Assembly (NCBI GenBank): GCA_036381415.1
Contig: DASVCV010000003.1
Location: 4,162 to 68,161, forward strand
DNA: 64,000 bases
Direction of reading: 5' to 3'
Origin: Patescibacteria group bacterium
Lineage (GTDB): Bacteria; Patescibacteriota; Microgenomatia; UBA8517
Shown here: positions 36,816-61,873 of the stretch, in pieces
Numbering within the stretch: position 1 is the first letter of the stretch
Layout: each line of letters starts with the position of its first letter
Program-made: the position numbers and the translations under genes
The notes under the pieces: generated by a model
What the model saw: only the letters and a program-made list of their open reading frames with translations
Database searches by the model: none
Told to the model about the DNA's origin: nothing

Positions 36816-36839
36816 CTAGATTTAAGAAATATTAATTAA

Positions 36840-42103: not shown

Positions 42104-42706
42104 ATGAGAAAATTTTTTTGGTTGGGTTTTGTTTTTTTGCTTTTGGGCCTAATATTTCCCCTCAGCGTAAGAGCTGCAGACTGTTATGAGTCTAACGTTC
42201 AACCTGGCTACAATGCCTGTATTAATTCATCAGGCCATAATAGTTGCGGGAAGGGAGCTGATGGTTTAGATGTATGCTGCAATCCTGGCATAATTGTTTG
42301 CCCGCCCGATACAGCTAAAGGCAAAACACAGGATCCACACCAAACTGTTGGTACAGAATACACAGGCATAACTTGTGGAACAGATGGAGAAGGAATAAAC
42401 ACAGCCATTGGTTGCATCCCATTTGGTGATTCAACTAAATTGATTTCATTTTTCCTTGGATGGGGTATGGGAATTGCAGGAGGAATTGCATTTTTATTGA
42501 TACTTTTTGCAGGTTTTCAAATTATGACATCTAGGGGAGATCCCAACAGACTTAAGGCTGGACAAGAGCTACTTACTTCTGCAATTGCCGGACTAATTTT
42601 ACTAATATTTTCTATATTTATACTAAGAGTGATTGGAGTTGATATACTACAAATAAAGGAAATAAGTACAAGTACATCAACACAAACAACAGGAGGTAAA
42701 CAGTAA
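42104..42706 (+). CDS. Cys-rich extracellular domain fused to a VirB2/TrbC-like pilin module
   Basis: Signal peptide, about 12 Cys in the first 100 aa, then FFLGWGMGIAGGIAFLLILFAGFQIMTSRGDPNRLKAGQELLTSAIAGLILLIFSIFIL. This helix-loop(GDP)-helix unit is shared with the seven downstream small genes. Confidence 0.5.
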   Translation: MRKFFWLGFVFLLLGLIFPLSVRAADCYESNVQPGYNACINSSGHNSCGKGADGLDVCCNPGIIVCPPDTAKGKTQDPHQTVGTEYTGITCGTDGEGINTAIGCIPFGDSTKLISFFLGWGMGIAGGIAFLLILFAGFQIMTSRGDPNRLKAGQELLTSAIAGLILLIFSIFILRVIGVDILQIKEISTSTSTQTTGGKQ

Positions 42707-43029
42707 TGACCACAAAACTAGCACAAATTGACTTTAACGCACTACAAAATGCAAATGGAGGGACTTTTCAGCCAACTAGTATTGGAGACTTAATCTCCAG
42801 GCTTCTTCCGTATCTTTTTACAATAGCGGGGTTAGTACTGCTTCTTTATCTTATATTTGGGGGTCTTCAACTTATGCTTTCAGGCGGAGATCCTAAAGGA
42901 GCTGCTTCTGCAAAAGCACATATTACAAATGCGTTGATTGGCTTTGTAATAATTTTTATTGCTTTTTGGGCAGTACAGATATTTGGAGCAGTATTGGGAC
43001 TAAAAGGTATAACTGCAATATTTAGATAA
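42706..43029 (+). CDS. VirB2/TrbC-like pilin paralog 2
   Basis: 107 aa with two hydrophobic helices flanking LSGGDPKGAASAKAHITNALIGFVIIFIAFWAVQI. Confidence 0.5.
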   Translation: MTTKLAQIDFNALQNANGGTFQPTSIGDLISRLLPYLFTIAGLVLLLYLIFGGLQLMLSGGDPKGAASAKAHITNALIGFVIIFIAFWAVQIFGAVLGLKGITAIFR

Positions 43030-43078
43030 ATTAGGCTCTTTTCATTGCTATATAGTAGAGAGGTTGATAAAATAAGGT

Positions 43079-43384
43079 GTGAATTACTTAGCGGTTAACA
43101 TTGGAAGTCAGTTTGGCTCTCCATTTGGAGTTACAAACACACTTGGAGATCTTGTTTCACTTCTTTTAAAAGCATCTTTTACAATTGCAGGGCTTTTAAT
43201 TTTATTTTTTATAGCTTTTGCTGGATTTCAGATGATTGCTGGAGCAGGGAGTGGAAATCCAGAATCTGCTAAAAAAGGAAGAGAGGCAGCAACTGCAGCA
43301 GTTCTTGGATTTGTAATTATATTTGTGGCATACTGGATAGTAAGGATTATTGAGATCATTACAGGATTAAGATTAATATCATAA
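43079..43384 (+). CDS. VirB2/TrbC-like pilin paralog 3
   Basis: 101 aa. ...FQMIAGAGSGNPESAKKGREAATAAVLGFVIIFVAYWIVRII. Confidence 0.5.
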   Translation: MNYLAVNIGSQFGSPFGVTNTLGDLVSLLLKASFTIAGLLILFFIAFAGFQMIAGAGSGNPESAKKGREAATAAVLGFVIIFVAYWIVRIIEIITGLRLIS

Positions 43385-43386
43385 AA

Positions 43387-43746
43387 ATGAAATTTTTAGC
43401 ACAAGCTGATAACATCTTTGGAACAGTCACCCCACCTTCCCCACTTGCTGCTGGAGGTAAATTTGACTTATTAAATGGTGGAATTGGAAATTTTTTAAAT
43501 TTGATTTTAAAACTTTTAATTGTGGGTGGTGGAATTTATGCTCTATTTAATTTGGTTTTAGCTGGGTATGCATTTATGTCAGCTGGAGATGATCCTAAAA
43601 AGATGGAGGGGGCAACCGCTAAAATCTGGCAAACTGCAATTGGACTTGTTTTTATGGCAGGGGCTTTTGTACTGGCAGCAATATTTGGACTATTAATTTT
43701 TGGAAGGGCAGATGCGATACTTAATCCAAGTATTCCTACGATTTAA
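43387..43746 (+). CDS. VirB2/TrbC-like pilin paralog 4
   Basis: 119 aa. ...AFMSAGDDPKKMEGATAKIWQTAIGLVFMAGAFVLAAIFG. Confidence 0.5.
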   Translation: MKFLAQADNIFGTVTPPSPLAAGGKFDLLNGGIGNFLNLILKLLIVGGGIYALFNLVLAGYAFMSAGDDPKKMEGATAKIWQTAIGLVFMAGAFVLAAIFGLLIFGRADAILNPSIPTI

Positions 43747-43752
43747 TTAATT

Positions 43753-44109
43753 ATGAAAAACTTGCTATCTGATATAAATATAGGACCCCTTCAAGGGGTG
43801 GGTCCTCTTGGGACGGGAATTAGTGATGCTAATGCTGCAACTAAGTTTAACGATGTCATATCCAAAATAATTGGAGTTATGACAGTTGTTGCTTTTATAT
43901 GGTTTACTTTTCAAGTTGTAATGGGAGCCATAAGAATTGTTACATCTGGTGGAGATAAAGGAGCATTAGAGGGAGCAAGAAAACAAATTACAACAGGCAT
44001 CATCGGGTTGGTTGTAGTTGTTGCAGCAATATTTATAGTAAAGCTATTAGGAACACTTCTTGGAATTCCCGATATTCTTAACCCAACAACAATTTTAAAT
44101 ACAAAATGA
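43753..44109 (+). CDS. VirB2/TrbC-like pilin paralog 5
   Basis: 118 aa. ...IRIVTSGGDKGALEGARKQITTGIIGLVVVVAAIFIVKLLG. Confidence 0.5.
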   Translation: MKNLLSDINIGPLQGVGPLGTGISDANAATKFNDVISKIIGVMTVVAFIWFTFQVVMGAIRIVTSGGDKGALEGARKQITTGIIGLVVVVAAIFIVKLLGTLLGIPDILNPTTILNTK

Positions 44110-44450
44110 AAAACAAATTACTAGCTGCTGATTCCATAAGTAATCCCGCACTTGGCAATCTTAATACCAATTCTGGTGTTACTTTTTTCCAAAAACTTAT
44201 TCCCTCTTTAATAGGACTTGCTTTTGTTGCAGGAGTTTTAATATTTTTTTTCATGCTTTTATTGGGAGCAATTCAATGGATAACTTCAGGTGGAGATAAG
44301 GGAGCTTTAGAGGGAGCAAAAGGAAGACTAACCAATGCTTTGATAGGAATAATTGTGCTTTTTGCGGTTTTTGCTATAATAAAACTTATTGAAGGGTTTT
44401 TTGGCATATCAATATTGACACTTGACATAGGACCTTTGATAATTAAATAA
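44106..44450 (+). CDS. VirB2/TrbC-like pilin paralog 6
   Basis: 114 aa. ...IQWITSGGDKGALEGAKGRLTNALIGIIVLFAVFAIIKLIEG. The start overlaps the previous stop. Confidence 0.5.
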   Translation: MKNKLLAADSISNPALGNLNTNSGVTFFQKLIPSLIGLAFVAGVLIFFFMLLLGAIQWITSGGDKGALEGAKGRLTNALIGIIVLFAVFAIIKLIEGFFGISILTLDIGPLIIK

Positions 44451-44456
44451 TAAATT

Positions 44457-44849
44457 ATGTTGAATAGATTATTAGCAGCAACTAATCCAACCTCAGGTGC
44501 TGATAAAACCATAAACATTGCTCCTGGTGGTGGTGGAGAAGCTCAATTTGGTGCTTTAAAGGATATAACCATTGGAGGTCTTATTTCAGGGGCAATTTCA
44601 CTTGCCCTTTTGGTTGCAGCAGTTGTTTTCTTCTTCATGTTGGTAATTGGAGGCATTAAATGGATAACTTCAGGTGGAGATAAAGGACAAACTGAAGCTG
44701 CAAGAAGCCAAATTACAGCTGCATTGGTCGGGCTTGTAATAGTATTTGCTGCTTGGGCAATTGCACAGTTAATTTCAAGCTTGTTCGGTATTACAATCTT
44801 TAGCGGATCTTTCCAACTTCCCACTTTTACAAGTGGAGCTGCAAAATAA
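44457..44849 (+). CDS. VirB2/TrbC-like pilin paralog 7
   Basis: 130 aa. ...IKWITSGGDKGQTEAARSQITAALVGLVIVFAAWAIAQLISS. Confidence 0.5.
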   Translation: MLNRLLAATNPTSGADKTINIAPGGGGEAQFGALKDITIGGLISGAISLALLVAAVVFFFMLVIGGIKWITSGGDKGQTEAARSQITAALVGLVIVFAAWAIAQLISSLFGITIFSGSFQLPTFTSGAAK

Positions 44850-44893
44850 ATAATTGGTTGCTTCAAAGATTGTGTTGAGATAAACTTACATTA

Positions 44894-45211
44894 ATGGGTT
44901 TAGTTAAAACTGTTTATGCACAAGGTACTGGTGCTCCCCCGGCACAGCTATCTGGATTAGAAGGTATTTTTTCAAACATTATTTCTCTTGCAATTGGTTT
45001 TGCTGGAATTGCTTTTTTTGTAATGTTTCTTGTTGGAGGATTTCAATATCTAACTGCAGGTGGAAACCCTCAACAAGCAGAGGGGGCAAAGAAAACTTTA
45101 ACTTATGCAATTTTTGGGCTTGTCTTTATTGCACTTGCTTATCTTATATTAAGATTCATTGCATCTTTAACTGGAGTGGACAGCATTCTTAACTTTAAAA
45201 TTTCTCAATAA
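44894..45211 (+). CDS. VirB2/TrbC-like pilin paralog 8
   Basis: 105 aa. ...FQYLTAGGNPQQAEGAKKTLTYAIFGLVFIALAYLILRFIAS. Confidence 0.5.
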   Translation: MGLVKTVYAQGTGAPPAQLSGLEGIFSNIISLAIGFAGIAFFVMFLVGGFQYLTAGGNPQQAEGAKKTLTYAIFGLVFIALAYLILRFIASLTGVDSILNFKISQ

Positions 45212-45253
45212 CTACTATTCTGACACTTCTGCCTTTGCTATATAATTAAGATC

Positions 45254-48200
45254 ATGCTGAAGAAATCTTTCAAATTGTTTTTTATTTTAACGGTATTGTT
45301 TTCATTCCTTAGAATTGTTAATTCTAAAAGCAGTTTTGTATATGCACAGGCTGCTTGTAGTACAGCAGGTGCTACGTGCTGCAAAGATACTTCTAATAAA
45401 TATTTCTGCAATAACGGACTTAATCCCACCTCACAGACAGCACTTTGTACATGTAGTGGCAGCACACCTTCTACCCAAACTCCAACTCAAAATTCATCTA
45501 CCCCTGTGACTCAATCTCATGCAAATGGAGATAAGATTGGACCTGAACTTGCAGACCCGGCAGCTGGGGCAAATGTTGTAGATAGAAATGGATTCAAAGG
45601 AACAGTTGCTGTAATCAATAGCATTGGCGGTTCAGTCCAGAATACTGTTCCGAGCAAAAGTAGCAATCCGGTTGCCTTGAGGCTTCTTATGGATTCAGGT
45701 ACAACAATTGATTCAATGATACTTTATGCAAATCTGCTAAATGGATCGGGTCCTAGTCAATTTCCCAATGGGGCTATCATAATCCTTGGCAATGAGCTTA
45801 ATAACCTTAAGGGAGAATGGAAAGATACAAACTTTACACTTAGAGACGCAGGTGCAAGATATGCATTTATGTTTAACTCATTTGCGGACAATGTAACGCT
45901 TGATCGAGGAAAGTTTAAAGTGGCTCCAGCTCCACCTGATATGTACAATGGCGATTTTGATCCAGTGGAGTGGCTAAATGGATTTTTATACGGAGACGAA
46001 AAACACCGATATAGCTACGGCGTAGATTGTGACAGAATAGATACTTTAATTGCAAATGTTTTTCAAGTTCAGCCGGCGGCAAAAGTAGGAGGACAATGGG
46101 ATCAAACTTATATTTTTCTTCAAAATTATATAGGCAAAAAGTGTCCTGGAAAAACTGTGACTCATTTTGAAGGCTGGGGAGCTGATCCACATGCCTCTGT
46201 TTCAGATCAAGTAAACTTTTTAAACACACAGCCTTTGCCTGTTAACTCAGCTGCTACCTTAATAGTTGATAACTGTGATGGAAGTTTTGGAGGAAATGGC
46301 ATTAAACCGTGGCTTTACTATATTCCAAAAGCTCCTTTTGTTTACAAAGCTGATGGAACTCCCTTAGATCCTCAAACTTGTAGTGGAAGTTCAAATCTTG
46401 CAACAACTAAAAATCCTTATACTCCAAAAGACGTGCCATGTGATTCAAGAATTGGTGAATACTCTGATGAGTACCACTCACTTCGACCCTACCCTGCTTC
46501 TCCTTGTAAAAAAGAAGTGAGTGAAACAGCACTCATGTGTGGAAATGATTTAATTGTTAAAAAAACATTTAGTGATTTGGCTCCAAGTGGCGATTGTACA
46601 TCGCCGGGAGCTGATGGATCATTTTTCTGCAATTATAAATATTCAGGACTAACCGACAATGTAACCATAAATCTTAAAAATGCAGAGTTACCAATTCTTG
46701 GGAACACTGAGTTAGTACCAAATTCAACTGATAGAAACGGTGCTAAAAGAGCTTATATAACTTATGGTCAGAGAGTAAATGAATATGTCAGCTGGTACTT
46801 AAATGGAGCTATAGACAGAGCTGAGGAAAACTTTATTAAAATTCCATCTGATATTGACACTCTTCTTAACTACTCTGGACCTTTAAGGAAACTTTTTCCT
46901 TGGAGTGTTCAGATTAATCAAGGAATGAAAACAGTACAGCAGGTTTTTGATACGAGACACGATCAGACAGTTGGCTGCTATTCAAATGGCCAACCTGTTT
47001 CTTGTGCAACACCTGAAGCTTTAAAGGATACACAAGAAGTAAGGGCAAGTTTCTGGAAGAATGCATCTCCCCCATTAGAATCTGCATTTAGTGATTTTAG
47101 AGAATACTGGAAAGCTTATATGACTTGGAGAGGACAATTTTGCACTCCAAGCCTTTTAGGATTTTTTCTCTGTAGCCCAGATCTAACTGCTGGGCCAAAC
47201 TGGCTTGCTTCATTTTTCCCTTTTATTCCTCAATCCTCTACTGAAGATAGGACAGGGCAGGTTATTACTGACAACAATATTGTAGTGAATGGAAAGCAAC
47301 AACTTGAACATACTGTGCAACTTAAGGATGGACAAGGAAATGGAGGTACAGTGGAGAATGTTTCATTTACACCTGTAAGTGATAACCACAATCTGTATTT
47401 TGCACACACTGAAGAAGTAGCAACCTTGGGACAACTTTTACAAAGTACATTTGCTACTAAAAGTGATCCAATCAATGACTGGGAGACAAGACTTTCTCGA
47501 GATGTAGCAATTCATGATCCTGATGCAGTTGGAGGAATGCAAAAATACCAAACATATGGATGCAATACCCAGGATGTGCGTATAAATCCAGGAGACAATC
47601 TATATGGAGACTTGCCAAAAGATGGAAACCAGATAACTGGAAACTTGAACTATGATGCTACTTTTAGCTGCAAGTTTGAAAGGAAAACTGATCAAGCTTG
47701 TGTAGACAACTGTAAGGGAGATCAGACCTGTGCTGCAGCTTGTACACACACAAATGGGTGTAGTAAAGATATTTATGTTTCCCTGGCAATTTATACTAAA
47801 ACTCCCAAAGCACAAGAGATTTGGGACAGACTCGTTGACGGGGAAATGTCTGTTTTTAAAAAGATATTTCCTAAAGCTGGTCCAAACAGCCCTGTAGAAT
47901 CTATTAAAGACATTCCTGCTGCAAGCAAGGTTGTCTATACATCAACAACTGATGAAGCAAAAGCTGGAATGACTGGAAGAGGTGGAGCTGAGGCACAGCT
48001 ATTTTTCCCACATATAGGGAGCTTGGAAGAATATTTCTTAAAAGGTATACAACAGGCACTTAGACCGAAAGATGTAGGTGAAACTGCCATTGCTGGAAAG
48101 CCAGGAGCAATGTGTAGCCCAACAAACCCAACTAACAAATCAACATTTAGGGATACTGAAATTTCAGATGGAGTAATTGGACTTGCCCTACAAGTAAGCA

Positions 48201-48781
48201 GATACACTTGCACCCCAGCTGAACTTTTAATTGGAGTTTTGTCACAGGAAACCAGAGGAAGAACAGTTACTTCATTTAATCCCCTAACCCAAGAACCTAT
48301 TACTGGAGATCCTAATCAAAAGGTTGTAAGAACTGAGAGGTGTTTAAATGGAGATTTGAATGATCCAAATGGGTGTGGTCCCTATTCCTGGCATCCTTTT
48401 GTGACATATACAAACATGGCTGGCCAATGGCAAAAACAAGCTGCCGACTGCATTAACCACTTTGGTGTGTCATCCCCTCTTGACCAAAGAATTATTGCAC
48501 AGGCAATGTGCTACACTTCTGCTCATTTCTGGGGGTCAATTAGACTGAAGGATAGTTCTTTGCCTGATTGCACAGGAGAAAATCAAAAACCTTATACGCT
48601 TGACCAAGTTGATCCGGCTGGAGTGAGGCTTGCAACACTACAATTTTGCGGAGAAGCTGAAAATGGAGTTTTTACTCCAAGGTGTCAATCATATGCTGAT
48701 ACCTACAATACAATGATTGAGGGATACAAAGCTTCAGTTGGAATAGTAAGAGATCAGATGAAGGCATGTTTGACTCCATAA
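45254..48781 (+). CDS. large secreted Cys-rich protein (1175 aa), possible T4SS-associated surface/adhesin or cell-wall-active protein
   Basis: Signal peptide and many paired Cys (CSTAGATCCKD..., CVDNCKGDQTCAAACTHTNGC). The C-terminal region has ELLIGVLSQETRG, weakly reminiscent of lytic-transglycosylase catalytic-Glu context. Confidence 0.45.
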   Translation: MLKKSFKLFFILTVLFSFLRIVNSKSSFVYAQAACSTAGATCCKDTSNKYFCNNGLNPTSQTALCTCSGSTPSTQTPTQNSSTPVTQSHANGDKIGPELADPAAGANVVDRNGFKGTVAVINSIGGSVQNTVPSKSSNPVALRLLMDSGTTIDSMILYANLLNGSGPSQFPNGAIIILGNELNNLKGEWKDTNFTLRDAGARYAFMFNSFADNVTLDRGKFKVAPAPPDMYNGDFDPVEWLNGFLYGDEKHRYSYGVDCDRIDTLIANVFQVQPAAKVGGQWDQTYIFLQNYIGKKCPGKTVTHFEGWGADPHASVSDQVNFLNTQPLPVNSAATLIVDNCDGSFGGNGIKPWLYYIPKAPFVYKADGTPLDPQTCSGSSNLATTKNPYTPKDVPCDSRIGEYSDEYHSLRPYPASPCKKEVSETALMCGNDLIVKKTFSDLAPSGDCTSPGADGSFFCNYKYSGLTDNVTINLKNAELPILGNTELVPNSTDRNGAKRAYITYGQRVNEYVSWYLNGAIDRAEENFIKIPSDIDTLLNYSGPLRKLFPWSVQINQGMKTVQQVFDTRHDQTVGCYSNGQPVSCATPEALKDTQEVRASFWKNASPPLESAFSDFREYWKAYMTWRGQFCTPSLLGFFLCSPDLTAGPNWLASFFPFIPQSSTEDRTGQVITDNNIVVNGKQQLEHTVQLKDGQGNGGTVENVSFTPVSDNHNLYFAHTEEVATLGQLLQSTFATKSDPINDWETRLSRDVAIHDPDAVGGMQKYQTYGCNTQDVRINPGDNLYGDLPKDGNQITGNLNYDATFSCKFERKTDQACVDNCKGDQTCAAACTHTNGCSKDIYVSLAIYTKTPKAQEIWDRLVDGEMSVFKKIFPKAGPNSPVESIKDIPAASKVVYTSTTDEAKAGMTGRGGAEAQLFFPHIGSLEEYFLKGIQQALRPKDVGETAIAGKPGAMCSPTNPTNKSTFRDTEISDGVIGLALQVSRYTCTPAELLIGVLSQETRGRTVTSFNPLTQEPITGDPNQKVVRTERCLNGDLNDPNGCGPYSWHPFVTYTNMAGQWQKQAADCINHFGVSSPLDQRIIAQAMCYTSAHFWGSIRLKDSSLPDCTGENQKPYTLDQVDPAGVRLATLQFCGEAENGVFTPRCQSYADTYNTMIEGYKASVGIVRDQMKACLTP

Positions 48782-48833
48782 AAGAATCTAAACGGGACTT
48801 TAGTTTTTGGATCAAGTATAATATGATAAATCA

Positions 48834-50525
48834 ATGTCCAAACTATTCAAGAAATTTTTAGCTTCGTTTTTGGTTGCATTTTTTTTGCTCATAACGGTTG
48901 CAACACCTTTTGCTCATGCTCAATCAAATGGTACTTGGTATTCTCAGGGTTTTGACCAGTGGTATGCCAAGGTTTATGACACAAGTAATCCCCAAGAAAT
49001 TTTTGGAGAAAGGTATACTGCAGCACAAGTACAATGGGTTTTTTATGGAGCTGCTTCTTTTTTCTTAAATTTAGCCTTGGGAGGCAATACCGATTTAGTT
49101 CAGTGTTCAATTCTACATGACGTAGGAAAATGTAATGCAGCGGTTCAAAAAATGTTTTCATTTAGAGACAATGCCATACCTGTAGCTGAAAAAAATGAAA
49201 CTCTTTTATCACAAATATTTGCTGACCGTCCCCTTTCAGGCATTACTTATGTAAAAGATTTAGGACGAAAATTCCATCTTGTTCCTGAGGCAAAAGCTCA
49301 GTCTGTCGGGTTTGGATATCAGGCACTCTATATTATTCAGGATGCATGGAGGGCAGTACGAGATCTTTCATATGTGTTCTTTGTGATAGTAATTTTAGTT
49401 TTTGCCTTCATGATCATGTTTAGAGTAAAGATATCACCCCAAGTGGTAATTACTGTTCAATCAGCGCTTCCAAAGCTGGTTGTTGGACTTATTCTTGTTA
49501 CTTTTTCCTACGCTATTGCAGGGTTTTTAATAGACTTGATGTATGTGATTATTGGTTTTATCAGTATTATTTTCTCCCGAATCGATGTGATCGGGTTTTC
49601 TAAAAATGCGGTAGATTATTTTAATTTGTTTACCAAAGGACCGGCAATTGGGCCAGTACGAGGAGGGGTTGTACTGTTTTTAGTCTATTATTTCCTTTAT
49701 TTCTTGGTAGCCTGGGTTCTTACTTTTTTCTTTGGCTTAGTCAGCTCCCTAACAAGTTTAACAAATCAGAATCTTAGCGGATTTATAGGTGGAGAGAGTA
49801 TGAGTGCTTTAATACTTCTAGTAGGAATAATTTTGCTGATTGTACTTATAATATTAATCATCATAAATATTTTTAAAATTTTGTTGATGCTTGTAAAAGC
49901 TTTCGCATCGATACTTCTTTTGACGATATTTGCGCCTCTTCAGCTAACGGTAGGTATGGTTGTCCCAGGCCTAGGTTTTGGTTCGTGGCTCAAAAGTTTT
50001 GTCTCTAAACTTGCAGTGTTCCCTGTAACTGGAGCTCTTTTTATGCTGGCTTTCTGGTTTTTGAATCTTGCAGTTGGTATAGCATTTGATCAAACTCGTA
50101 TTAACCTGGCAAGCGGAGCTCTTTCTGGGCTTATTGTTAAGGTTGACCCCAATGTAATTAGTGGATTTAATGCAAGTTTTACTCAAGGTTGGCCTCCCCT
50201 TCTAGGCGGACTTCCCCAAATGGCAGCACTTGTAATGTTAGTTGTAAGTTTTATGGTTTTTGCAATGATACCTAAAGCAGGAGATATGGTAGAAGGACTT
50301 ATTTCAGGAAAGTTTGCATTTGGTAGTGCAATTGGAGATTCATTTAAGCCATTCACAGCTTTTGGTGGAGCAATCTATGGAACAGCCCAAAAAGCTGGTG
50401 CTGAAGGAGCTGTTGGCTATATAGGCGGCAGGCTTGCACAACAAGGAGGCTTAGTCGCTAGAGGAGGTAGATATCTAGAACAAGCCGTAAGAAGAGGTAG
50501 AACAGTGAAGGAGGAAGAAGCTTAA
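48834..50525 (+). CDS. polytopic membrane protein, VirB6/TrbL-like
   Basis: Signal peptide, ~150-aa extracytoplasmic segment, at least 7 TM helices, Gly-rich C-terminal tail. The layout and position next to the pilin genes fit a VirB6 analogue. Confidence 0.4.
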   Translation: MSKLFKKFLASFLVAFFLLITVATPFAHAQSNGTWYSQGFDQWYAKVYDTSNPQEIFGERYTAAQVQWVFYGAASFFLNLALGGNTDLVQCSILHDVGKCNAAVQKMFSFRDNAIPVAEKNETLLSQIFADRPLSGITYVKDLGRKFHLVPEAKAQSVGFGYQALYIIQDAWRAVRDLSYVFFVIVILVFAFMIMFRVKISPQVVITVQSALPKLVVGLILVTFSYAIAGFLIDLMYVIIGFISIIFSRIDVIGFSKNAVDYFNLFTKGPAIGPVRGGVVLFLVYYFLYFLVAWVLTFFFGLVSSLTSLTNQNLSGFIGGESMSALILLVGIILLIVLIILIIINIFKILLMLVKAFASILLLTIFAPLQLTVGMVVPGLGFGSWLKSFVSKLAVFPVTGALFMLAFWFLNLAVGIAFDQTRINLASGALSGLIVKVDPNVISGFNASFTQGWPPLLGGLPQMAALVMLVVSFMVFAMIPKAGDMVEGLISGKFAFGSAIGDSFKPFTAFGGAIYGTAQKAGAEGAVGYIGGRLAQQGGLVARGGRYLEQAVRRGRTVKEEEA

Positions 50526-52538: not shown

Positions 52539-52665
52539 GGCCTATTTTAACATTTTGTAAACGGTTTATCTAATTAACTTCTTGTAGTTTCTTTATAATA
52601 CTAAACTCTTTTATGTTAAAGGTGTTTGAAATTGCTTAAAAAGGGATTTGAAAGAAATGTTTCTA

Positions 52666-53424: not shown

Positions 53425-53459
53425 TATGCGTATTAGTTGGCAGGGGGGTTATGGAATAT

Positions 53460-54428: not shown

Positions 54429-54537
54429 ATTCCTGCTCGGGATATTAGATTGTTAGTTTTCTGGCTTTACAGTTGCGGCACAGCTAGGGATTTGCACCCT
54501 ATTCCTTAAACACAATCTTTAAGTCATCATAAAATCT

Positions 54538-55359
54538 TTGTGTTTATTTTCAATAGGCAAATTGACAATAAAACCTATAATATCTATAATCCAGACCATG
54601 AGTGATTTTGAAAGAGCAAGACATAGACTGCAACAAAAAGCAGAAGAATCACAGAGAAGAAAATTAGAAGAGACTGAGACAGAAAAAATCTTCCAAGAGA
54701 CAGAGCAGTCAAGGTTGAAAAATGAGGCTGAACAATTAAGATTAGACCAAGAAGGGCTAGAAGCAAGAAAAAAAATACTACCCGCAGCCCAATTAAAAAT
54801 ATCTGAATTTTTATCTGAAATTAATGCTAAGCTTTTTTTAAATAAAGGTGCAATATCAGGCTGGAGAGTAGTTGAAGATCTACATGATCACACTACTTAT
54901 TACGAAGAGGGCATGTATGATAACTATTGTAGCTGGTCAGAAACTGAGCACCATAAATCTAAACAACTTGTAACCAGCCTCCATCTGGACGCCAATCAAT
55001 CCCTCTTCTTTTCTATACCTGTAATGAGTTCTACATTGGTAGAGAAAGAAAAATTCATAGAAGAGAGAGACTGGTTGATGCGTAAAACTGGGGTTGTCTT
55101 TTCCGATGGTTATGAAAAATTGTGGGAAGACAGATTAGCTTTGGATAAACAGTTGGGTCAAGTATCTTTAGGTGGAGAAAAATGTTACAGAGAAACTGCA
55201 AGGGTTCCTATTAGTTATTATAATGAGGAAGAGAGGAAGAAACTCTTTATTGCAGGTGAACCAATAGTTTGCAGATTACCACTTAAGGGTGACGAGTGGA
55301 ATAAATTTAGAGAACTAGTTCTTTATTATATTGCCGAAGAGTTGAATCTTCCTGATTAA
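54538..55359 (+). CDS. hypothetical protein (start probably the internal Met at ~54599)
   Basis: 273-aa ORF. The N-terminal 60 aa are charged and coiled-coil-like. Confidence 0.35.
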   Translation: MCLFSIGKLTIKPIISIIQTMSDFERARHRLQQKAEESQRRKLEETETEKIFQETEQSRLKNEAEQLRLDQEGLEARKKILPAAQLKISEFLSEINAKLFLNKGAISGWRVVEDLHDHTTYYEEGMYDNYCSWSETEHHKSKQLVTSLHLDANQSLFFSIPVMSSTLVEKEKFIEERDWLMRKTGVVFSDGYEKLWEDRLALDKQLGQVSLGGEKCYRETARVPISYYNEEERKKLFIAGEPIVCRLPLKGDEWNKFRELVLYYIAEELNLPD

Positions 55360-55454
55360 TAATTTGTGAAAAGGGCAACTACTTGCAATAGACACTTCAC
55401 GCAGTAAGCTAAACATAGCCGTACAAAGTATTAATAATGTAATCACTGCCTATC

Positions 55455-56498
55455 ATGGAACAGCATCCAGTACCACAACAAATTTCATCCTATCAATTCC
55501 ATTTGGTAGGAGACATGACTCTAAAACAGTTCCTGCAGCTAGCAGGAGGTGTTGTTGTGGGAATAGTTTTCTATGCAACAGGGCTACCTGGAATTATTAA
55601 ATGGCCACTTATTCTAATTTCAGTAGCAATAGGTGGAGCAATGGCTTTTATTCCTTTTGAAGAAAGACCACTTGAACAATGGTTTATTGCATTTTTTAGA
55701 TCTATTTACTCCCCTACTATTTTTGTTTGGAGCCACCAAGCAGGTACTGCCAAGATTTTTCAGGATGAAACAGTAGTGGGTGAAGTAATTGAGGCAAAAT
55801 CAACAGGTCCAAAGATTCCATTTCTTTCTAATTTGGAAGATAGTGAAAATAAATTCCTCTCTAAGATTTCATCATTTTTTACACCATCTTCTGCACCTAC
55901 TCCACAGGTTCAATTTCATCCTACTCCTGTTGTCCAAGCCCAACCTCCTGCTCCTACTCCTCAAGCACCTGTTCAAACTTCCCCTTTTGGAGGAGTACCT
56001 ACTGAAGGAGTTCAGGCATTTAGGCCTGCAAGTGAAGTGCAAAATGTGCAGCAAGCTAAACCTAGTCTTGTAATAGAAGATAAAGTTACAACTCCTGGAG
56101 TGACTGCTGATATTGCACCTTTAAGGCAATCTATAACTACTCAACCTGCTATGAATTTACCACAGGCTGCATTTTCAACTCAGGCTGCTCCCCCTTCTCC
56201 TCCAACAATTCCTAACACTATTGTTGGACAAGTTATTGATCCTGATGGAAAAATCGTTGAAGGTGCAATACTTGAGATTCGGGATACCTTAGGAAGACCA
56301 GTCAGAGCTTTAAAAACTAACAAAGCCGGGCACTTTTTAATTGTTACACCTTTAATGGAAGGAAGGTATGAGCTTATCACTGAAAAAGATGGACTTTTGT
56401 TTGATTCAATGGCTTTTGAGGCACAGGGAGCAATTATTCCACCTATAGCAATTAAAGCAAAAGGAAGACAAGTTGCTCCAGAGGAGGTTAAAAATTAA
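55455..56498 (+). CDS. PrgI/VirB3-like membrane protein with Pro/Gln-rich extension
   Basis: N-terminal YQFHLVGDMTLKQFLQLAGGVVVGIVFYATGL plus a second TM matches the PrgI/VirB3 pattern found directly upstream of VirB4 in Gram-positive-type T4SS. The remainder is PAPTPQAP-rich. Confidence 0.45.
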   Translation: MEQHPVPQQISSYQFHLVGDMTLKQFLQLAGGVVVGIVFYATGLPGIIKWPLILISVAIGGAMAFIPFEERPLEQWFIAFFRSIYSPTIFVWSHQAGTAKIFQDETVVGEVIEAKSTGPKIPFLSNLEDSENKFLSKISSFFTPSSAPTPQVQFHPTPVVQAQPPAPTPQAPVQTSPFGGVPTEGVQAFRPASEVQNVQQAKPSLVIEDKVTTPGVTADIAPLRQSITTQPAMNLPQAAFSTQAAPPSPPTIPNTIVGQVIDPDGKIVEGAILEIRDTLGRPVRALKTNKAGHFLIVTPLMEGRYELITEKDGLLFDSMAFEAQGAIIPPIAIKAKGRQVAPEEVKN

Positions 56499-57215
56499 AT
56501 GAAAATCTCACCTCCAAAAACCAATCCTATAGGGAATGTGGTCAAGAATGTTCCTTTTTTAAGCTTGCCTGATAGGCCACTTGTTACTTCTACTCAAGAA
56601 CAAATGCCTATTGCTGATATTACAGATGAAGGCTTGGTTCTTTTTAAAGATGGAGGAGCTTCAGTAATACTTGAGTCAACTTCACTTAATTTTGGATTGT
56701 TGTCTGAGAAAGAACAGGAGGCAGTTATTTATGCATACGCAGCACTCCTTAATTCTCTTTCCTACACAATACAGATTGTTGTAAGGTCTCAAAGAAAGGA
56801 TATCTCAAACTACTTAACCTACTTAGATAGGTCATACCAAAAACTAACAAATCCTAAATTGAAGGAGTTGATGGCAGGATATAAAAGCTTTATCTCAGAA
56901 ACTATTAAAAAGAAAAATGTTTTGGGGAAAAGATTTTTTGTTGTAATTCCCTTTTCTCCACTGGAGCTTGGAGTAACTAAATCTTTTTTGTCAGTTACTA
57001 AAAGGAAAGGGCCTCTCCCCTTTCCTAAAAGCTACATTATTAAAAAAGCAGCAGTGGCTCTTTTTCCAAAAAGAGATCATTTAATAAGACAGGCAGGAAG
57101 ATTAGGAATAAAACTGACACAAGTGCAAAAAGAAGAAATCATTACACTTTTTTATGATGTATTTAATCCTAGTGCACCTGTTATTAGATCTAATGAGCAG
57201 GCAACAAAAGCTTAA
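56499..57215 (+). CDS. VirB4 N-terminal (CagE/TrbE/VirB) domain encoded as a separate ORF
   Basis: MPIADITDEGLVLFKDGGASVILESTSLNFGLLSEKEQEAVIYAYAALLNSL...TIQIVVRSQRKD matches the canonical VirB4 N-terminus. The ORF stops 17 nt before, and in a different frame from, the ATPase ORF. Confidence 0.5.
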   Translation: MKISPPKTNPIGNVVKNVPFLSLPDRPLVTSTQEQMPIADITDEGLVLFKDGGASVILESTSLNFGLLSEKEQEAVIYAYAALLNSLSYTIQIVVRSQRKDISNYLTYLDRSYQKLTNPKLKELMAGYKSFISETIKKKNVLGKRFFVVIPFSPLELGVTKSFLSVTKRKGPLPFPKSYIIKKAAVALFPKRDHLIRQAGRLGIKLTQVQKEEIITLFYDVFNPSAPVIRSNEQATKA

Positions 57216-57231
57216 GGAGTAATTTTAAAAT

Positions 57232-59073
57232 ATGGATAAACAAGGCTTAACTACACAAAAACAAGTATTTACAAGTGGCACTGTAAATCCAAGTACAGGA
57301 GCTGTTGTACAGACTACTACTAGCGAGCAAAAACCAAATGTGGCTAATCCTGCTGCTGCAATTAAAGAAGGCAAAATTGGAATACAGGATTTAATTTCTC
57401 CAAAGAGTATGGAGATTGATTTTGAATATTTAAAAATCGGAGATGTTTATCTTAGAACTCTTTTTGTAGCAGGATATCCCAGGTTTGTTTCTGCCGGATG
57501 GCTAGAACCTGTTATTAATTTTGACCACTCAATGGATATTTCTTTTTATGTATATCCAGTAGAGGGAAAATCAGTACTTGATGATCTTAGGCGAAAGATT
57601 GCTGAGATGGAAGCTGAGATTTCAACGGATATACAGCGTGGAAAAGTAGTTAATCCTTCCACTCAGGCAAAACTTGAGGATGCATTAGTACTGCAAGAGC
57701 AGCTTGTTAAAGGATCCGAGAGATTTTTTGAGTTTTCTTTTTACATAACAATACCTGCTGCAACTTTGGAAGAACTTGATCATGTAACAAGACAAATTAT
57801 TTCAACACTAGGTTCCCTTCTTATTGTTGGCAAGAAGGCAACACTTGATATGGAAAGCGGATTTTTATCCACTGCTCCATTTGGAGTGGATAGACTTTCC
57901 ATAACAAGGAATATGGATACAACTTCACTTGCCACTACTTTTCCATTTACATCAGCAGAGCTTTCAAGTGACACTGGAATTTTATATGGAATTAATCCTC
58001 AAAATGAATCTTTTATTATTTTTGATAGATTCTCTTTGGAAAACTACAACATGACAATATTTGCTACCTCTGGAGCTGGAAAATCATTCTTTGTGAAGCT
58101 TGAATCAATTAGATCTTTAATGCTTGGAAGCGATGTGATTATTCTTGATCCTGAGGCAGAATATAAACCTCTTGCAGAAGCTGCAGGAGGAGAATATATA
58201 TCTTTTTCATTTAACTCCCCTTCTAAAATAAATCCTTTTGATTTATCAGCAATACAGGAAGAAGGAGAAAATCAACTGGGACTAAAAATTCTTTCACTTC
58301 ATTCTTTGTTTAAAGTAATTATGGGGGAACTTAATGCAACCCAGGAGGCACTACTAGATAGAGCTTTGATTGGAACATATAGGGCAAAAGGAATTACACA
58401 AGACCCTGCAACTCAGACAAAAGAACCACCTTTAATAGAAGATCTATACAAAACTTTAATTGGAATGGAGGTGCCTGAGGCACTTGATTTGGCAGCTAGA
58501 ATAGAAAAATTTGTAAAAGGCTCATTTGTAGGAATATTTGACCAGCAAACAAATATTGATATTAAAAATCCTTTTACTGTTTTTAGCGTAAAGGATCTAC
58601 AAGATGTACTTAGGCCAATTGCAATGTTTATTATCCTAGATTTTATTTGGACCAAGGTTAAGAAAGACATTAAAAAGAGACTTCTAATAGTTGATGAGGC
58701 ATGGCACATGATGAGATATCCTGACTCAGCACAATTCTTGTGGTCTGTTGTGAAGAGGGCCCGCAAGTACTACCTAGGACTTACCACAATCACCCAGGAC
58801 GTGGAGGACTTCCTTGCACAGGACATTGGAAAGGCAATTGTTACTAACTCATCTTTGAGAGTGCTTTTAAAACAATCTCCTGCTGCAATTGATAAAATAG
58901 GAGAATTGTTTTATTTGTCTCAAGGAGAAAAACAATTATTACTTGCAGCTAATGTGGGTGAAGGAATATTTTTTGCAGGGCCACACCATGCACCAATTAG
59001 AGTTGTTGCATCACCTAGCGAATATCAATTAATTACAACCAAACCTGCTGACATTATTAATCAAAGACAATGA
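57232..59073 (+). CDS. VirB4/TrbE-family T4SS ATPase (C-terminal ATPase portion)
   Basis: Walker A FATSGAGKSFFVKL, Walker B with the VirB4-diagnostic LLIVDEAWHMM, and C-terminal motifs. 613 aa. Its own AAGGAG RBS lies upstream. Confidence 0.85.
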   Translation: MDKQGLTTQKQVFTSGTVNPSTGAVVQTTTSEQKPNVANPAAAIKEGKIGIQDLISPKSMEIDFEYLKIGDVYLRTLFVAGYPRFVSAGWLEPVINFDHSMDISFYVYPVEGKSVLDDLRRKIAEMEAEISTDIQRGKVVNPSTQAKLEDALVLQEQLVKGSERFFEFSFYITIPAATLEELDHVTRQIISTLGSLLIVGKKATLDMESGFLSTAPFGVDRLSITRNMDTTSLATTFPFTSAELSSDTGILYGINPQNESFIIFDRFSLENYNMTIFATSGAGKSFFVKLESIRSLMLGSDVIILDPEAEYKPLAEAAGGEYISFSFNSPSKINPFDLSAIQEEGENQLGLKILSLHSLFKVIMGELNATQEALLDRALIGTYRAKGITQDPATQTKEPPLIEDLYKTLIGMEVPEALDLAARIEKFVKGSFVGIFDQQTNIDIKNPFTVFSVKDLQDVLRPIAMFIILDFIWTKVKKDIKKRLLIVDEAWHMMRYPDSAQFLWSVVKRARKYYLGLTTITQDVEDFLAQDIGKAIVTNSSLRVLLKQSPAAIDKIGELFYLSQGEKQLLLAANVGEGIFFAGPHHAPIRVVASPSEYQLITTKPADIINQRQ

Positions 59074-60833
59074 ATAAATCTGTAGGAAATTTTTTATTTC
59101 AAGCTTCTCAGTTTTTTGCTACCAATCCTAGAGAAACTGCATATAAAGATATTTTTCCAAAAGACCACATGCTTTCTCTTTTTTTCAAGAGACAAGAGTT
59201 TAGGAAAAAGCTACTTGAGAAAAATGAAGATGTAGAGAAAAGAAAAGATAAACAGATGCAAAGGATCAAACAAACTTTGCAGACAATTTCATCTACCCCA
59301 GAAGAAATTCCTTCTGTCTCACCTGAAGCAGAAAATATAGTAAGTGAGTATGCAACTTTAACACAAGCTAAGGATTTGGGAGGAATAGACCAAGAACAAA
59401 TTAATGCAAGGAAAGGTCAGATAGATCAGAAGTTTAATGGCTTTATAGACAAAAATCCTGCACCACTTTCTGCATTAACTAATTTTGCATTACAAAAAGC
59501 TGGAGGAAAAATTGCAGAGGCAGCTGCAACAAAGGCAGTTGCTGCAGTTGCAACAGGAATCAATCCAGCATTGGGAGCTATTGTTACTTTTATAAGCAAA
59601 GAGGTAATTTCAAGAGTCATAACCTGGCTTGCAAAGAACAAAGAAAGGTTTTTTGAGGTATTGGGTGGAGGAATGATTTTAGGAGGAATACTTGTTGGAG
59701 GAACAGGAGGAAGCGTATTGGCTGTTGCAGGAGCAGGAGTTGGAGCAGCAGGAGTGATAAGTGCTGCAGGCGGAGTAAGTGCTGCGGCCGGAACTCTTGG
59801 AGCTGCTTTCTTCACTTTTGTTGGAGCAATTTTAGGAACAATTATTGCGGCAATTATAATTCCTTTAACAATTGCCTTTATTGCAATACCAATAATAACT
59901 GTTTTAATTCTTTTTATAATTAATTCAGGAGCTTATGTAGTACCACCTGCTCCATCTCTTTCTGGAACATCGGGCAGCAGTACTCTTGGAATTACTATTT
60001 CTTCTCCCTATATAGATGTTGTAAAGACAGCATCTCCTGCTGGACCATTTGAAAATAGTGCACTTACTAACGGTCTTACTATTAAATATGATGTTACAGT
60101 ACGTGCAAAAAAGGGTGCTTTATCTAACTTGAAATTCGAAAATACTTGCCAACAGGTTAAAAAGGGAGGGTCAGCTGTTTGTGATGCACAGATTCCAAGC
60201 AAAGATGCTATGCCTCAGTTTGTTGATCCCGGCAAACCTTATACATTTTCTTATTCTGAAACATACTTTTCACCTAGCTTTGAAGATTCTTTTGTAGTTG
60301 ACACATTTAAAGTTACCGCTGATGCTGTTCCGGAAAAAACAGGGGCAATAGCTGCAGCTAGTGCGGTAGTTAAAATTGGAAAGCCGCCTGAAGATTGCCC
60401 CTCGGGGTGGCCAGTGGATGGAGATATTGTTATTACCCAAGGACCAAACGGTTCCCTCTCCCATTACGGCTATCAAGCAATAGATATAAGTAAGCCTGCA
60501 CTGACTCCTATACATGCAACACATGCTGGCACTGTTATATCTCAGTACTGGGAAGTGTCCTATGGGCATCATGTCAGAATTGTTTCAAGCTGTAATGGAA
60601 AGACTTTTGAGTCAGTATATGGGCATATGGATACAATTGCAGTTAAGACGGGAGATTTTGTGGCACCTGGAGAAATTATAGGGACAATAGATAATACTGG
60701 CCGAAGCTCTGGGAACCATCTTCACTATGAATTCCGGCCAGTTACACCTGGGTCAAATGATGGTCCAGTTTTCCCACAATCTAATCAGCCTTTACTTATG
60801 AATCCGCCTTATATTCCAAAGTCGGTGCAGTAA
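59070..60833 (+). CDS. membrane-anchored M23 (LytM-type) metallopeptidase with Gly/Ala-rich TM region
   Basis: C-terminal M23 motifs HYGYQAIDI (HxxxD) and GNHLHYEF (HxH). The central region is extremely Gly/Ala-rich and hydrophobic. The start overlaps the VirB4 stop. Confidence 0.7.
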   Translation: MNKSVGNFLFQASQFFATNPRETAYKDIFPKDHMLSLFFKRQEFRKKLLEKNEDVEKRKDKQMQRIKQTLQTISSTPEEIPSVSPEAENIVSEYATLTQAKDLGGIDQEQINARKGQIDQKFNGFIDKNPAPLSALTNFALQKAGGKIAEAAATKAVAAVATGINPALGAIVTFISKEVISRVITWLAKNKERFFEVLGGGMILGGILVGGTGGSVLAVAGAGVGAAGVISAAGGVSAAAGTLGAAFFTFVGAILGTIIAAIIIPLTIAFIAIPIITVLILFIINSGAYVVPPAPSLSGTSGSSTLGITISSPYIDVVKTASPAGPFENSALTNGLTIKYDVTVRAKKGALSNLKFENTCQQVKKGGSAVCDAQIPSKDAMPQFVDPGKPYTFSYSETYFSPSFEDSFVVDTFKVTADAVPEKTGAIAAASAVVKIGKPPEDCPSGWPVDGDIVITQGPNGSLSHYGYQAIDISKPALTPIHATHAGTVISQYWEVSYGHHVRIVSSCNGKTFESVYGHMDTIAVKTGDFVAPGEIIGTIDNTGRSSGNHLHYEFRPVTPGSNDGPVFPQSNQPLLMNPPYIPKSVQ

Positions 60834-60859
60834 ACAGAGGTAAAGCAAAGTTGTAAAAT

Positions 60860-61873
60860 ATGTTTATGAATTTATCAAGCAGAAAAAGAATAATTATGTT
60901 TTTAGCAGCCTTTACTTTTTTTGTGGCTGTAATGGGATTTTTGTTCATAAGAGGAAGACAAAATGTTTCTCCTGCTAATCCACCTGCTCCTCCCCAGATT
61001 TCAACATATGTGAATCAGACTTTTCCTATAAAAGTACAGCTTACTAAAGATGATTTTAATTTCCCAACTTCCCTCCCCCTTTTATATAAAGGAGGTTCTA
61101 GTCCAATAACTTTAGCTGAAGCAAAAGAAATTGCACTAAAGTTTGGATTTACTGGAGAGGTGCAAGAGCTTAAGGATATTCAGGAAGGAATTGTCTACTC
61201 CTGGTCAAACGAGACGGCAGGGTTATCTATCAGACCTAATAGAAAGGAAATCAAATACACAGTAAATCAGGCTCTCTCAACTTCGATTAGAAAACTATCA
61301 GAACCTGAGCTTATAGAAAAAGCTGCTACATTCTTAGAGCAAAAAAATCTCTTGGGAAATGACCAGGCAAAAACAGCCTTTGTTTATTATTTTTCTACTC
61401 AGGCTAGTGGAACAGATGAATTAAAACTTACCACTATTGATAAAGCAGATTATGTTGAAGTTAATTTTTCAGTAAAAGCTTCAGACTATAAACTCCTTAC
61501 TTTGGATCCACTTTCTTCCCCTATTGGGGTTCGACTTTTGCCAGATGGGAATATCACAGAAGTTGATTTAGCTAAACTTCCAGAAATTACAAAAGGAGGA
61601 GATTTGTTTAAGATTAAGAACTATGATCAGTTTGTATCAACTATCAAGGAGGCAAAAATAGTCAGTCTTAATGAAGGTGAAATGTTAAGCACAGATCCAA
61701 ATGCCAATCCAATTAACAGTGTAAATGTAACTGAGGTTGAACTTGTATATTTAATTGATTCGTCATCTTCAAATTATTATCAACCTGTTTTTCTTATTAA
61801 AGGGACGGCTGATATTGAGGGTATTGGAAAATATATTAGTAGCTATATGTACCTTCCAGCAATTACGAAGTAA
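60860..61873 (+). CDS. hypothetical signal-anchored extracytoplasmic protein
   Basis: N-terminal TM, then a 300-aa soluble domain. The last gene of the cluster. Confidence 0.4.
   Translation: MFMNLSSRKRIIMFLAAFTFFVAVMGFLFIRGRQNVSPANPPAPPQISTYVNQTFPIKVQLTKDDFNFPTSLPLLYKGGSSPITLAEAKEIALKFGFTGEVQELKDIQEGIVYSWSNETAGLSIRPNRKEIKYTVNQALSTSIRKLSEPELIEKAATFLEQKNLLGNDQAKTAFVYYFSTQASGTDELKLTTIDKADYVEVNFSVKASDYKLLTLDPLSSPIGVRLLPDGNITEVDLAKLPEITKGGDLFKIKNYDQFVSTIKEAKIVSLNEGEMLSTDPNANPINSVNVTEVELVYLIDSSSSNYYQPVFLIKGTADIEGIGKYISSYMYLPAITK

Follow-up and report, generated by a model that had tools for sequence, protein, structure and literature searches.

A type IV secretion locus, probably non-conjugative, beside the candidate replication origin of a Microgenomatia bacterium

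We analysed a 64,000 nucleotide stretch of the genome of a Patescibacteria group bacterium (Microgenomatia, UBA8517; assembly GCA_036381415.1, contig DASVCV010000003.1, positions 4,162 to 68,161), hereafter called the window, and in particular a type IV secretion system (T4SS) encoded on its forward strand at positions 42104-61873. The locus holds two tightly packed T4SS gene sets, set A at 42104-50525 and set B at approximately 54598-61873. The G+C content of the window is approximately 36%, and the composition of the locus equals that of its flanks. Because the genes are closely spaced and partly overlapping, the sequence indicates that each set is an operon. A preliminary description of the region, made from its sequence, had listed a pilin array, a 1175-aa Cys-rich protein, a VirB6-like protein, a PrgI/VirB3-like protein, a VirB4 ATPase, an M23 hydrolase and a terminal secreted protein. 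All of these genes are present where it had placed them; TrsD was absent from its list. The T4SS genes are:

42104-42706, forward strand: pilin 1, VirB2-like (PF18895, 5.8e-6, 26.7 bits; NF045849 Mbov_0395 pilin-like, 9e-4)
42706-45211, forward strand: pilins 2-8, VirB2-like, divergent (PF18895, E-values 2e-12 to 9e-4)
42706-43029, 43079-43384, 43387-43746 and 43753-44109, forward strand: pilins 2-5 individually (PF18895)
44106-44450, 44457-44849 and 44894-45211, forward strand: pilins 6-8 individually (PF18895)
45254-48781, forward strand: secreted Cys-rich protein of 1175 aa (signal peptide recognised by eye; 36 Cys)
48834-50525, forward strand: VirB6-like polytopic channel protein of 563 aa, assigned by predicted fold
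55455-56498, forward strand: PrgI/VirB3-like membrane protein (PF12666, 8e-7, 29.9 bits against a gathering score of 27)
56499-57215, forward strand: TrsD, 238 aa, homologous as a separate protein to the extreme N-terminal domain of VirB4 (NF041427, 5e-8)
57232-59073, forward strand: VirB4 ATPase (PF19044, 6e-31; Walker A motif ATSGAGKS at aa 278)
59070-60833, forward strand: predicted membrane-anchored peptidoglycan hydrolase (Peptidase_M23, PF01551, 9e-23)
60860-61873, forward strand: terminal protein of 337 aa, membrane-anchored and extracytoplasmic, with tandem PepSY/YpeB/YycI-like modules

For comparison we used 80 species-representative loci encoding a relative of the window VirB4 (58-80% identity). 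They come from Woese-, Gottesman-, Curtiss-, Beckwith-, Shapiro-, Ames- and 'Pace'-bacteria, many of them mislabelled metagenome-assembled genomes. Individual loci are referred to by L numbers; two closer relatives of the window are L083 and L085.

The eight tandem genes at 42104-45211 match Pfam family PF18895 (T4SS_pilin). Seven of them reach its gathering score and the eighth scores 19.8 bits. Seven of the eight also match NF045849, the NCBIfam model for the Mbov_0395 pilin-like conjugal transfer protein, below its cut-off. Pilin 1 carries a signal peptide and an N-terminal Cys-rich extension of approximately 90 aa, and is possibly a minor or tip pilin. Pilins 2-8 are 20-31% identical to pilin 1, with two hydrophobic helices flanking an SGGDP/K loop. 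Arrays of 2-11 pilins have been reported from Patescibacteria and are frequent in Microgenomatia (PMC12102498). Directly upstream of the array, on the reverse strand at 40358-42049, lies a gene for a secreted protein that combines coiled coils with a SpoIID domain, a domain of peptidoglycan remodelling.

The 1175-aa protein has no match in Pfam or among PDB sequences, and its family profile found nothing among PDB sequences either. Homologs are encoded in 11 loci, and relatives conserve a core spanning aa ~400-950. Its C-terminal ~225 aa stand where relatives carry lysozyme-like domains: one homolog matches PF18896 (SLT_3, 1.4e-7) and another shows an ES...GLFQIN motif. An 'LSQET' motif had raised the idea of an SLT/VirB1 domain in the C-terminus of the window protein as well. 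We found no Pfam match at E<=10, no PDB sequence match and an hhalign probability of 0.05, and retain only the positional analogy.

The 563-aa protein has a signal peptide, an outer domain of approximately 130 aa and at least six transmembrane helices. It was recognised by no profile, and a search of PDB sequences with its family profile found nothing. An AlphaFold2 model based on 51 homologs has a pLDDT of 78.5. When this model was compared with the PDB using Foldseek, R388 TrwI/VirB6 chains ranked first (probability 0.90-0.63, E-value approximately 0.4-1). Because of this ranking we accept the label VirB6-like at the level of the modelled fold, and the structure prediction that the preliminary description had named as a check thus supports its label. 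A search for the family gave 1309 matches, none of them annotated. VirB6 has been described as 'scarce' in Microgenomatia, and extreme divergence was suspected (PMC12102498). Judging from the model, the 563-aa family likely explains the 'missing' VirB6 of the class.

PrgI continues from its membrane domain through a Pro-rich linker to a C-terminal beta-sandwich of the CarboxypepD_reg type (PF13620, 7e-6, 26.7 bits, under the gathering score of 32.3). The match of TrsD to NF041427 lies under the curated 200-bit cut-off, and the assignment is supported by complementary matches to VirB4 N-terminal models. TrsD aligns to positions 1-111 of CD1110 and 107-282 of Mbov_0397, and the VirB4 gene to positions 178-752 and 292-875, respectively. 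Since the two cover complementary model positions, TrsD and VirB4 appear to be complementary parts of a canonical VirB4, that is, a split VirB4. VirB4 itself scores 385.9 bits against NCBIfam NF045971 (CD1110 family; cut-off 325) and has thousands of homologs in Patescibacteria with 76-96% identity. Its best relatives outside Patescibacteria are the CD1110-family VirB4 proteins of Bacillota and Actinomycetota. The system would thus appear to derive from monoderm conjugation machinery of the MPF-FATA/CD1110 type.

The hydrolase consists of a conserved cytoplasmic and transmembrane anchor (FIINSGAYVVPP motif) and an exchangeable outer catalytic domain, here M23. In relatives, these proteins share the anchor with a near-invariant FIINxGAxxxPP motif. 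Of 47 ORFs scanned downstream of virB4, 14 matched M23, six CHAP, two NAGPA, one GDSL and ten DnaA; the remaining 14 comprise two DnaJ proteins, one DUF4012 protein and otherwise ORFs without a hydrolase-identifying match. M23 is therefore the commonest hydrolase variant at this position in Microgenomatia (14 of 37 non-DnaA ORFs). The domains are interchangeable, and the proposal that M23 stands in place of the usual VirB1 or CHAP hydrolase does not agree with this census.

The model of the 337-aa terminal protein (pLDDT 78.3) shows tandem PepSY-type modules behind a membrane anchor. The protein is a lineage-specific accessory, present in few relatives. VirB8 was considered as its identity and rejected: the model lacks the NTF2-like fold expected after the N-terminal transmembrane helix. 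The second suggested structure prediction thus yielded an anchored PepSY-type protein and no VirB8 fold. YpeB acts together with a cortex-lytic enzyme, and inhibition of peptidases is a known property of PepSY modules. Because of these known roles as peptidase partners and inhibitors, we find it reasonable to suggest, by analogy, that the terminal protein restrains the adjacent M23 enzyme.

The preliminary description had treated the region as a single locus. Its contiguity is broken at 50679-55359 by four ORFs without T4SS signature, three of them antisense. This slot between the VirB6-like gene and prgI contains:

50679-52538, reverse strand: variable-slot protein of 619 aa, highly charged and of cytoplasmic type (no transmembrane segment, no Walker A motif)
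52666-53424, reverse strand: slot ORF of 252 aa, without homolog in related loci and without family match
53460-54428, reverse strand: slot protein of 322 aa with a C-terminal CxxC...CxxC zinc ribbon
54426-54597, forward strand: conserved intergenic region with a sigma-70-type promoter, TTGACA-17-TATAAT, at 54562-54590 (12/12 match)
54598-55359, forward strand: coiled-coil-rich slot ORF of 253 aa, between promoter and prgI

The 619-aa protein has no match in Pfam, NCBIfam or PADLOC, and only 85 related clusters were found among 1.84 billion representatives. The 322-aa protein has no family match either; L006, L020 and L085 encode weak homologs of it in the corresponding place (27% identity), and it is a fast-evolving positional ortholog of these. 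The 253-aa ORF probably starts at ATG 54598 and not at TTG 54538 as given by the ORF finder; its positional counterpart in L085 is 26% identical, and L083 lacks it. The intergenic region shares approximately 79% DNA identity with L083 and L085, though the flanking genes are unalignable. We regard 54562-54590 as a candidate promoter of the PrgI-VirB4 operon. It ends 7 nt before ATG 54598, which suggests a leaderless or very short-leader transcript of the first ORF of the operon.

Nearly every Woesebacteria-like locus encodes one large (530-1240 aa), antisense, charged protein in this slot. In the positions compared (L005-L019, L026, L030, L032, L044-L049), these proteins have 28-34% charged residues and no transmembrane segment, Walker A motif or Pfam match, and most are mutually unalignable; the family profile of the 619-aa protein matches 3 of approximately 20. 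Weak positional orthology links ins322 to L085_403, ins273 to L085_219 and L083_708 to L085_651. An N-terminal motif, [MF][PS]P?x?E, defined post hoc, is present in 12 of 22 slot proteins compared with 5% of other ORFs. Together these patterns suggest that the slot genes are very fast-evolving residents rather than foreign insertions; their products could be fast-evolving accessory factors or cargo. Two other identities were rejected. A defence island or foreign insertion at 50679-55359 is at odds with the lack of PADLOC matches and with the weak positional orthologs in relatives, and a degenerate type IV coupling protein (T4CP) is at odds with the 619-aa protein having neither a Walker A motif nor similarity to a Microgenomatia T4CP.

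Downstream, the T4SS locus adjoins the following features:

61863-62972, reverse strand: dnaN, with three DNA_pol3_beta domains; it runs convergently to the T4SS operon, with an 11-nt overlap
63057-63221, no strand: cluster of six DnaA boxes in the dnaA-dnaN spacer, each with at most one mismatch to TTATCCACA
63199-64000, reverse strand: dnaA, cut by the end of the window; the full 459-aa gene is visible in L002

Five of the DnaA boxes are intergenic and the sixth (63213-63221) lies just within the 3' end of dnaA. The sole exact DnaA box of the window belongs to this cluster, which is a candidate oriC. The reported position of the locus next to dnaN-dnaA and a likely oriC is borne out. GC skew was tried as an origin locator and discarded, since within the window it follows the gene strand and is uninformative. 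The T4SS operons are transcribed toward the DnaA boxes and dnaN/dnaA, and hence head-on to a fork leaving the candidate origin; the same orientation was found in 61 of 62 related loci with dnaN nearby. This is unusual for a conserved and presumably well-expressed operon. High gene dosage had been argued from the proximity to the origin, an argument that ignores the head-on orientation; dosage has, besides, already been inferred in the literature.

Across the 80 loci, PrgI is present in 70 and TrsD in 74. Among the 64 Microgenomatia loci with enough flanking sequence, 62 have dnaN and dnaA within 10 kb. These genes are convergent with the T4SS genes, as in the window, in 41 loci; in 20 they share the strand of the T4SS genes, and virB4 is immediately followed by dnaA. 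The window itself comes from a Woesebacteria-like genome, and the Woesebacteria-like gene order is also that of the window: pilins, big protein, VirB6-like protein, antisense gene(s), PrgI, TrsD, VirB4, hydrolase, dnaN and dnaA. Six Gottesmanbacteria-like loci (L040, L044, L046, L049, L052, L055) encode a T4CP divergently beside PrgI, with TrwB_AAD_bind and TraG-D_C domains and the Walker A motif GKTGTGKS (in L044 at ~5.6-7.8 kb). Because of this adjacency, the coupling protein is part of the system in some lineages of the class; it is absent from the window locus.

The comparison with L083 and L085 separates conserved from divergent parts. Between the window and L083, identity is 95% for VirB4, 92% for TrsD, 85% for PrgI, 91% for dnaN and 89% for dnaA. 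The VirB6-like protein (32%), the big protein (47%) and the hydrolase anchor (34%, with CHAP instead of M23) are divergent; L083 has another terminal protein, and its antisense genes bear no relation to those of the window. In L085, whose VirB4 is 91% identical to that of the window, the same hydrolase anchor carries a GDSL/SGNH domain. In both relatives the VirB6-like protein is 32-35% identical to that of the window, with DnaN at ~90%, and the terminal proteins are unrelated. Alignment at the DNA level is limited to four segments: PrgI-VirB4 (83-85% to L083, 74-81% to L085), dnaN-dnaA (81% and 73%), the region around the promoter (79%) and parts of the gene for the big protein (65-69%). Outer parts thus diverge even between strains with ~90% identical housekeeping proteins, and the locus appears to be a mosaic of a conserved motor and divergent or swapped outer parts. 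It may be added that L083 and L085 are both found in assembly GCA_040960095.1, on contigs of 688 and 749 kb that each carry a dnaA-dnaN-T4SS region; this 'genome' is probably a mixture of two related strains.

To search for conjugation genes, we scanned with Pfam every window ORF of 270 aa or more and, outside the locus, six shorter ORFs. VirD4, VirB11 and relaxase were not found among the scanned ORFs of the 64-kb window or among the precomputed Pfam matches of the 5-kb right flank. A Walker A pattern occurs, apart from VirB4, in just three of the ORFs that are 150 aa or longer: a DEAD-box helicase, the 1175-aa protein, where the match is by chance, and a 183-aa ORF at 34525-35076, which was not family-scanned and is far shorter than the 724-733-aa T4CPs of related loci. 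A tblastn search of the window with the Microgenomatia T4CP of L044 gave nothing (E>0.3). The ~5 kb past the window, read from an overlapping 9-kb contig of the same sample, encode dnaA, rnpA, yidD, yidC, jag, a Wzy_C protein and RNase H. The absence of VirD4, VirB11 and relaxase, first noted for 20 kb, therefore holds for ~69 kb (the window and ~5 kb), including the flank just beyond the window where VirD4 and a relaxase would have pointed to an ordinary integrated element.

No integrase gene borders the locus. The closest recombinase gene is found at a distance of 14 kb, with housekeeping genes in between, namely rpoD, dnaG, six tRNA genes and the tmRNA gene. It belongs to a mobile-element-like island on the forward strand at 21425-28480, encoding an IrrE/HTH regulator, three ORFs without family match, an N6/N4-type DNA methyltransferase and a large serine recombinase, the latter two at 26142-28480. 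The left edge of the island coincides with the cumulative GC-skew minimum and a gene-strand switch in the window. The six tRNA genes (four Ser, two Arg) lie at 33714-36816 together with a ComFC-like gene (35356-35967; double zinc ribbon and phosphoribosyltransferase) and the tmRNA gene (36453-36816). Elsewhere in the window, bacterial type IB topoisomerase and archaeal-type S-adenosylmethionine synthetase (PF01941) are encoded on the reverse strand at 8714-9718 and 19708-20931, respectively.

Taken together, we consider it likely that the locus is the Microgenomatia version of a chromosomal, vertically inherited, non-conjugative Patescibacteria T4SS for host contact and contact-dependent macromolecule transfer. 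The view that it is not a conjugation system was already part of the preliminary description, and agrees with the synteny fixed beside dnaN/dnaA, the flank-like composition and the lack of an adjoining integrase. Because of the fixed chromosomal synteny and ordinary composition, we exclude a recently integrated element. A survey reaches the same conclusions across the class (Quinonero-Coronel 2025, PMC12102498), and the T4SS of S. epibionticum (SEML1_0006-0019) is essential for epibiotic growth, with essential pilins and no coupling or relaxase proteins (Wang 2023, PMC10633639). Of the earlier interpretation, the T4SS derivation, the pilins and the lack of a nearby coupling ATPase or relaxase stand and match these published conclusions, and the M23 replacement falls away.

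We suggest the following mechanism. The motor at the cytoplasmic membrane would consist of PrgI/VirB3, VirB4 and TrsD, the detached N-terminal domain of VirB4, and the 563-aa VirB6-like protein would form the membrane channel and the base of the stalk. The membrane-anchored M23 endopeptidase would open the cell wall locally, probably tempered by its PepSY/YycI-like neighbour and aided by the large secreted Cys-rich protein. From one or several of the eight alternative VirB2-like pilins, the motor would then polymerise a tube or fibre that extends outside the cell and touches the host cell. With neither a relaxase nor a local coupling protein, such a machine would not conjugate DNA but would serve host contact and contact-dependent macromolecule transfer in episymbiotic life. 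Between a cultivated Patescibacterium and its host, tubular structures have been observed that are possibly T4SS pili (bioRxiv 10.64898/2026.06.21.733656).

Two observations weigh against this explanation. The absence of VirD4 is established for ~69 kb, and the genome may carry a coupling-protein gene in another place: 5,713 VirD4-like T4CPs are known from 2,918 Patescibacteria genomes, mostly far from virB4 (PMC12102498), and six of the 80 related loci have one beside PrgI. The HxxxD motif of the M23 domain is atypical by eye (HYGYQAID), so that its catalytic competence is uncertain.

The filament, host-attachment and DNA-uptake roles put forward in the preliminary description would look alike at the sequence level, and the three variants weighed below, import, export and adhesion, are sub-variants of a non-conjugative host-contact T4SS and do not exclude it. 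It is possible that the system imports nucleic acids in the manner of ComB of Helicobacter or Ced of Sulfolobales, feeding a nucleotide-auxotrophic cell from its host. Uptake of DNA or other macromolecules has been proposed for Patescibacteria (PMC12102498), as has feeding on host RNA (bioRxiv 10.64898/2026.06.21.733656). The lack of relaxase and T4CP is shared with ComB, the window carries the ComFC-like gene, and VirB4 matches the DNA-import ATPases CedB (1.5e-12) and CedD (4e-7). These matches are, however, much weaker than those to conjugative VirB4 proteins, and the locus has no recognisable DNA-binding or nuclease component. In S. epibionticum, the one species tested, the T4SS is essential and comEC is not, and because of this ComEC-coupled DNA uptake would not be the essential role.

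Export of effectors into or onto the host, with the slot proteins or the Sec-exported 1175-aa protein as cargo and a loading like that of Ptl or Brucella VirB, appears doubtful. A large, charged and unalignable protein sits in the same slot of nearly all related loci, over half of the slot proteins examined share the post hoc N-terminal motif, T4CP-less exporters are known, and protein export was suggested by Wang et al. (PMC10633639). The slot proteins nevertheless have no secretion signal of known type and show no sign of leaving the cell. Their genes lie on the opposite strand and could encode regulators or be unrelated fast-evolving genes, and a T4CP for recruiting cytoplasmic substrates is lacking.

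We also find it unlikely that the system is purely an adhesion organelle, a variable attachment pilus that moves no cargo. The eight divergent pilins, one with a Cys-rich extension, and the hypervariability of surface-exposed parts among close relatives would fit such a role. Type IV pili already serve adhesion in Patescibacteria, however, and a full VirB4/VirB6 translocon exceeds what adhesion needs, though it would be required for pilus biogenesis.

That the locus is a remnant or active part of an integrated conjugative element with its relaxase and VirD4 elsewhere is very improbable: the conjugative origin of its VirB4 family, the recombinase and DNA methylase at 26142-28480 and the T4CPs of the six Gottesmanbacteria-like loci speak for it, but the dnaN/dnaA synteny is fixed across the class, the composition equals that of the flanks, the recombinase island is 14 kb off behind rpoD, dnaG and the tRNA/tmRNA cluster, nothing conjugative follows past the window, and relaxases are found in only 103 Patescibacteria genomes (PMC12102498).

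Within the favoured explanation of a host-contact T4SS, we tentatively speculate, with considerable doubt, that the locus is a two-speed machine. A near-frozen motor (PrgI N-terminus, TrsD, VirB4) would be combined with outer parts and a slot that act as host-range determinants or effectors in an arms race. The replaced or diverged components would, on this same rather uncertain reading, be the VirB6-like protein, the large secreted protein, the catalytic domain of the hydrolase, the terminal protein and the charged-protein slot. The conserved head-on orientation may contribute to the fast evolution of the outer parts.

The absence of relaxases, the Microgenomatia pilin arrays, the proximity to dnaA/dnaN and the gene-dosage idea have already been published (PMC10633639; PMC12102498). 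What we add is modest: a VirB6 assigned by fold, a VirB4 read as split, a hydrolase whose catalytic domain is exchangeable, a hypervariable slot and the head-on orientation of the operons. The Patescibacteria T4SS gives a rare way into the question of how hosts are exploited by a large share of the uncultivated bacteria. The locus adds a clean Microgenomatia example and a fold-supported VirB6 label for more than 1300 unannotated proteins, and its fast-changing modules, the hydrolase domain and the slot proteins, are candidate host-specificity factors.

Among known systems, the conjugative MPF-FATA T4SSs of monoderms (pGO1/pSK41 Trs, pCF10 Prg, CD1110-type) share with the locus a VirB4 above the CD1110 cut-off, TrsD, PrgI, a membrane-anchored multidomain wall hydrolase and the lack of VirB7/9/10 outer-membrane parts. 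PrgK of pCF10 carries LytM, SLT and CHAP domains. The window locus differs in having VirB2-like pilins and no relaxase, T4CP or PrgB-type surface adhesin, and in being chromosomal, vertically inherited and fixed beside the origin. To the proteins Mbov_0395 and Mbov_0397 of the Mycoplasma integrated conjugative element it is linked by the Mbov_0395 pilin-like model, matched by seven of its eight pilins.

The best VirB4 match among 72,556 plasmid records (38.7% identity) is on replicon NZ_CP062975.1 of Pontibacillus sp. ALD_SL1 (L086). The locus lies at 351-361 kb of a non-mobilizable 898-kb replicon, among chemotaxis and flagellar genes, and no T4CP or relaxase is annotated within 9 kb of it. 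It encodes pilin-like protein(s), a large protein, small membrane proteins, a TrsD-like protein (28%), VirB4 and an M23 DD-metalloendopeptidase. It differs in having one or two pilin-like genes instead of eight, in not being origin-adjacent and in belonging to a free-living organism. Pilin- and M23-bearing monoderm T4SS loci therefore occur outside Patescibacteria, and since L086 has the same gene order, VirB2-like pilins are not unique to Patescibacteria among monoderm T4SSs.

T4CP-less systems, namely ComB of H. pylori (DNA uptake), Ptl of B. pertussis and VirB of Brucella (both protein export), have VirB2/3/4/6-type parts in common with the locus. They are diderm systems with VirB7-10 core complexes, related in sequence only via the shared T4SS families, and the comparison concerns a possible working mode and not membership.

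The closest counterpart is the T4SS of the Patescibacteria clade itself (PMC12102498; SEML1_0006-0019, PMC10633639). It shares with the window locus the clade VirB4, TrsD, PrgI/VirB3, the divergent VirB2-like pilin array, the absence of relaxase and T4CP near virB4, a peptidase downstream and the adjacency to dnaA/dnaN. What sets the window locus apart is its VirB6, assigned by fold to the 563-aa family of more than 1300 members, the 4.9-kb block of fast-evolving non-T4SS genes and the PepSY/YycI-like terminal protein.

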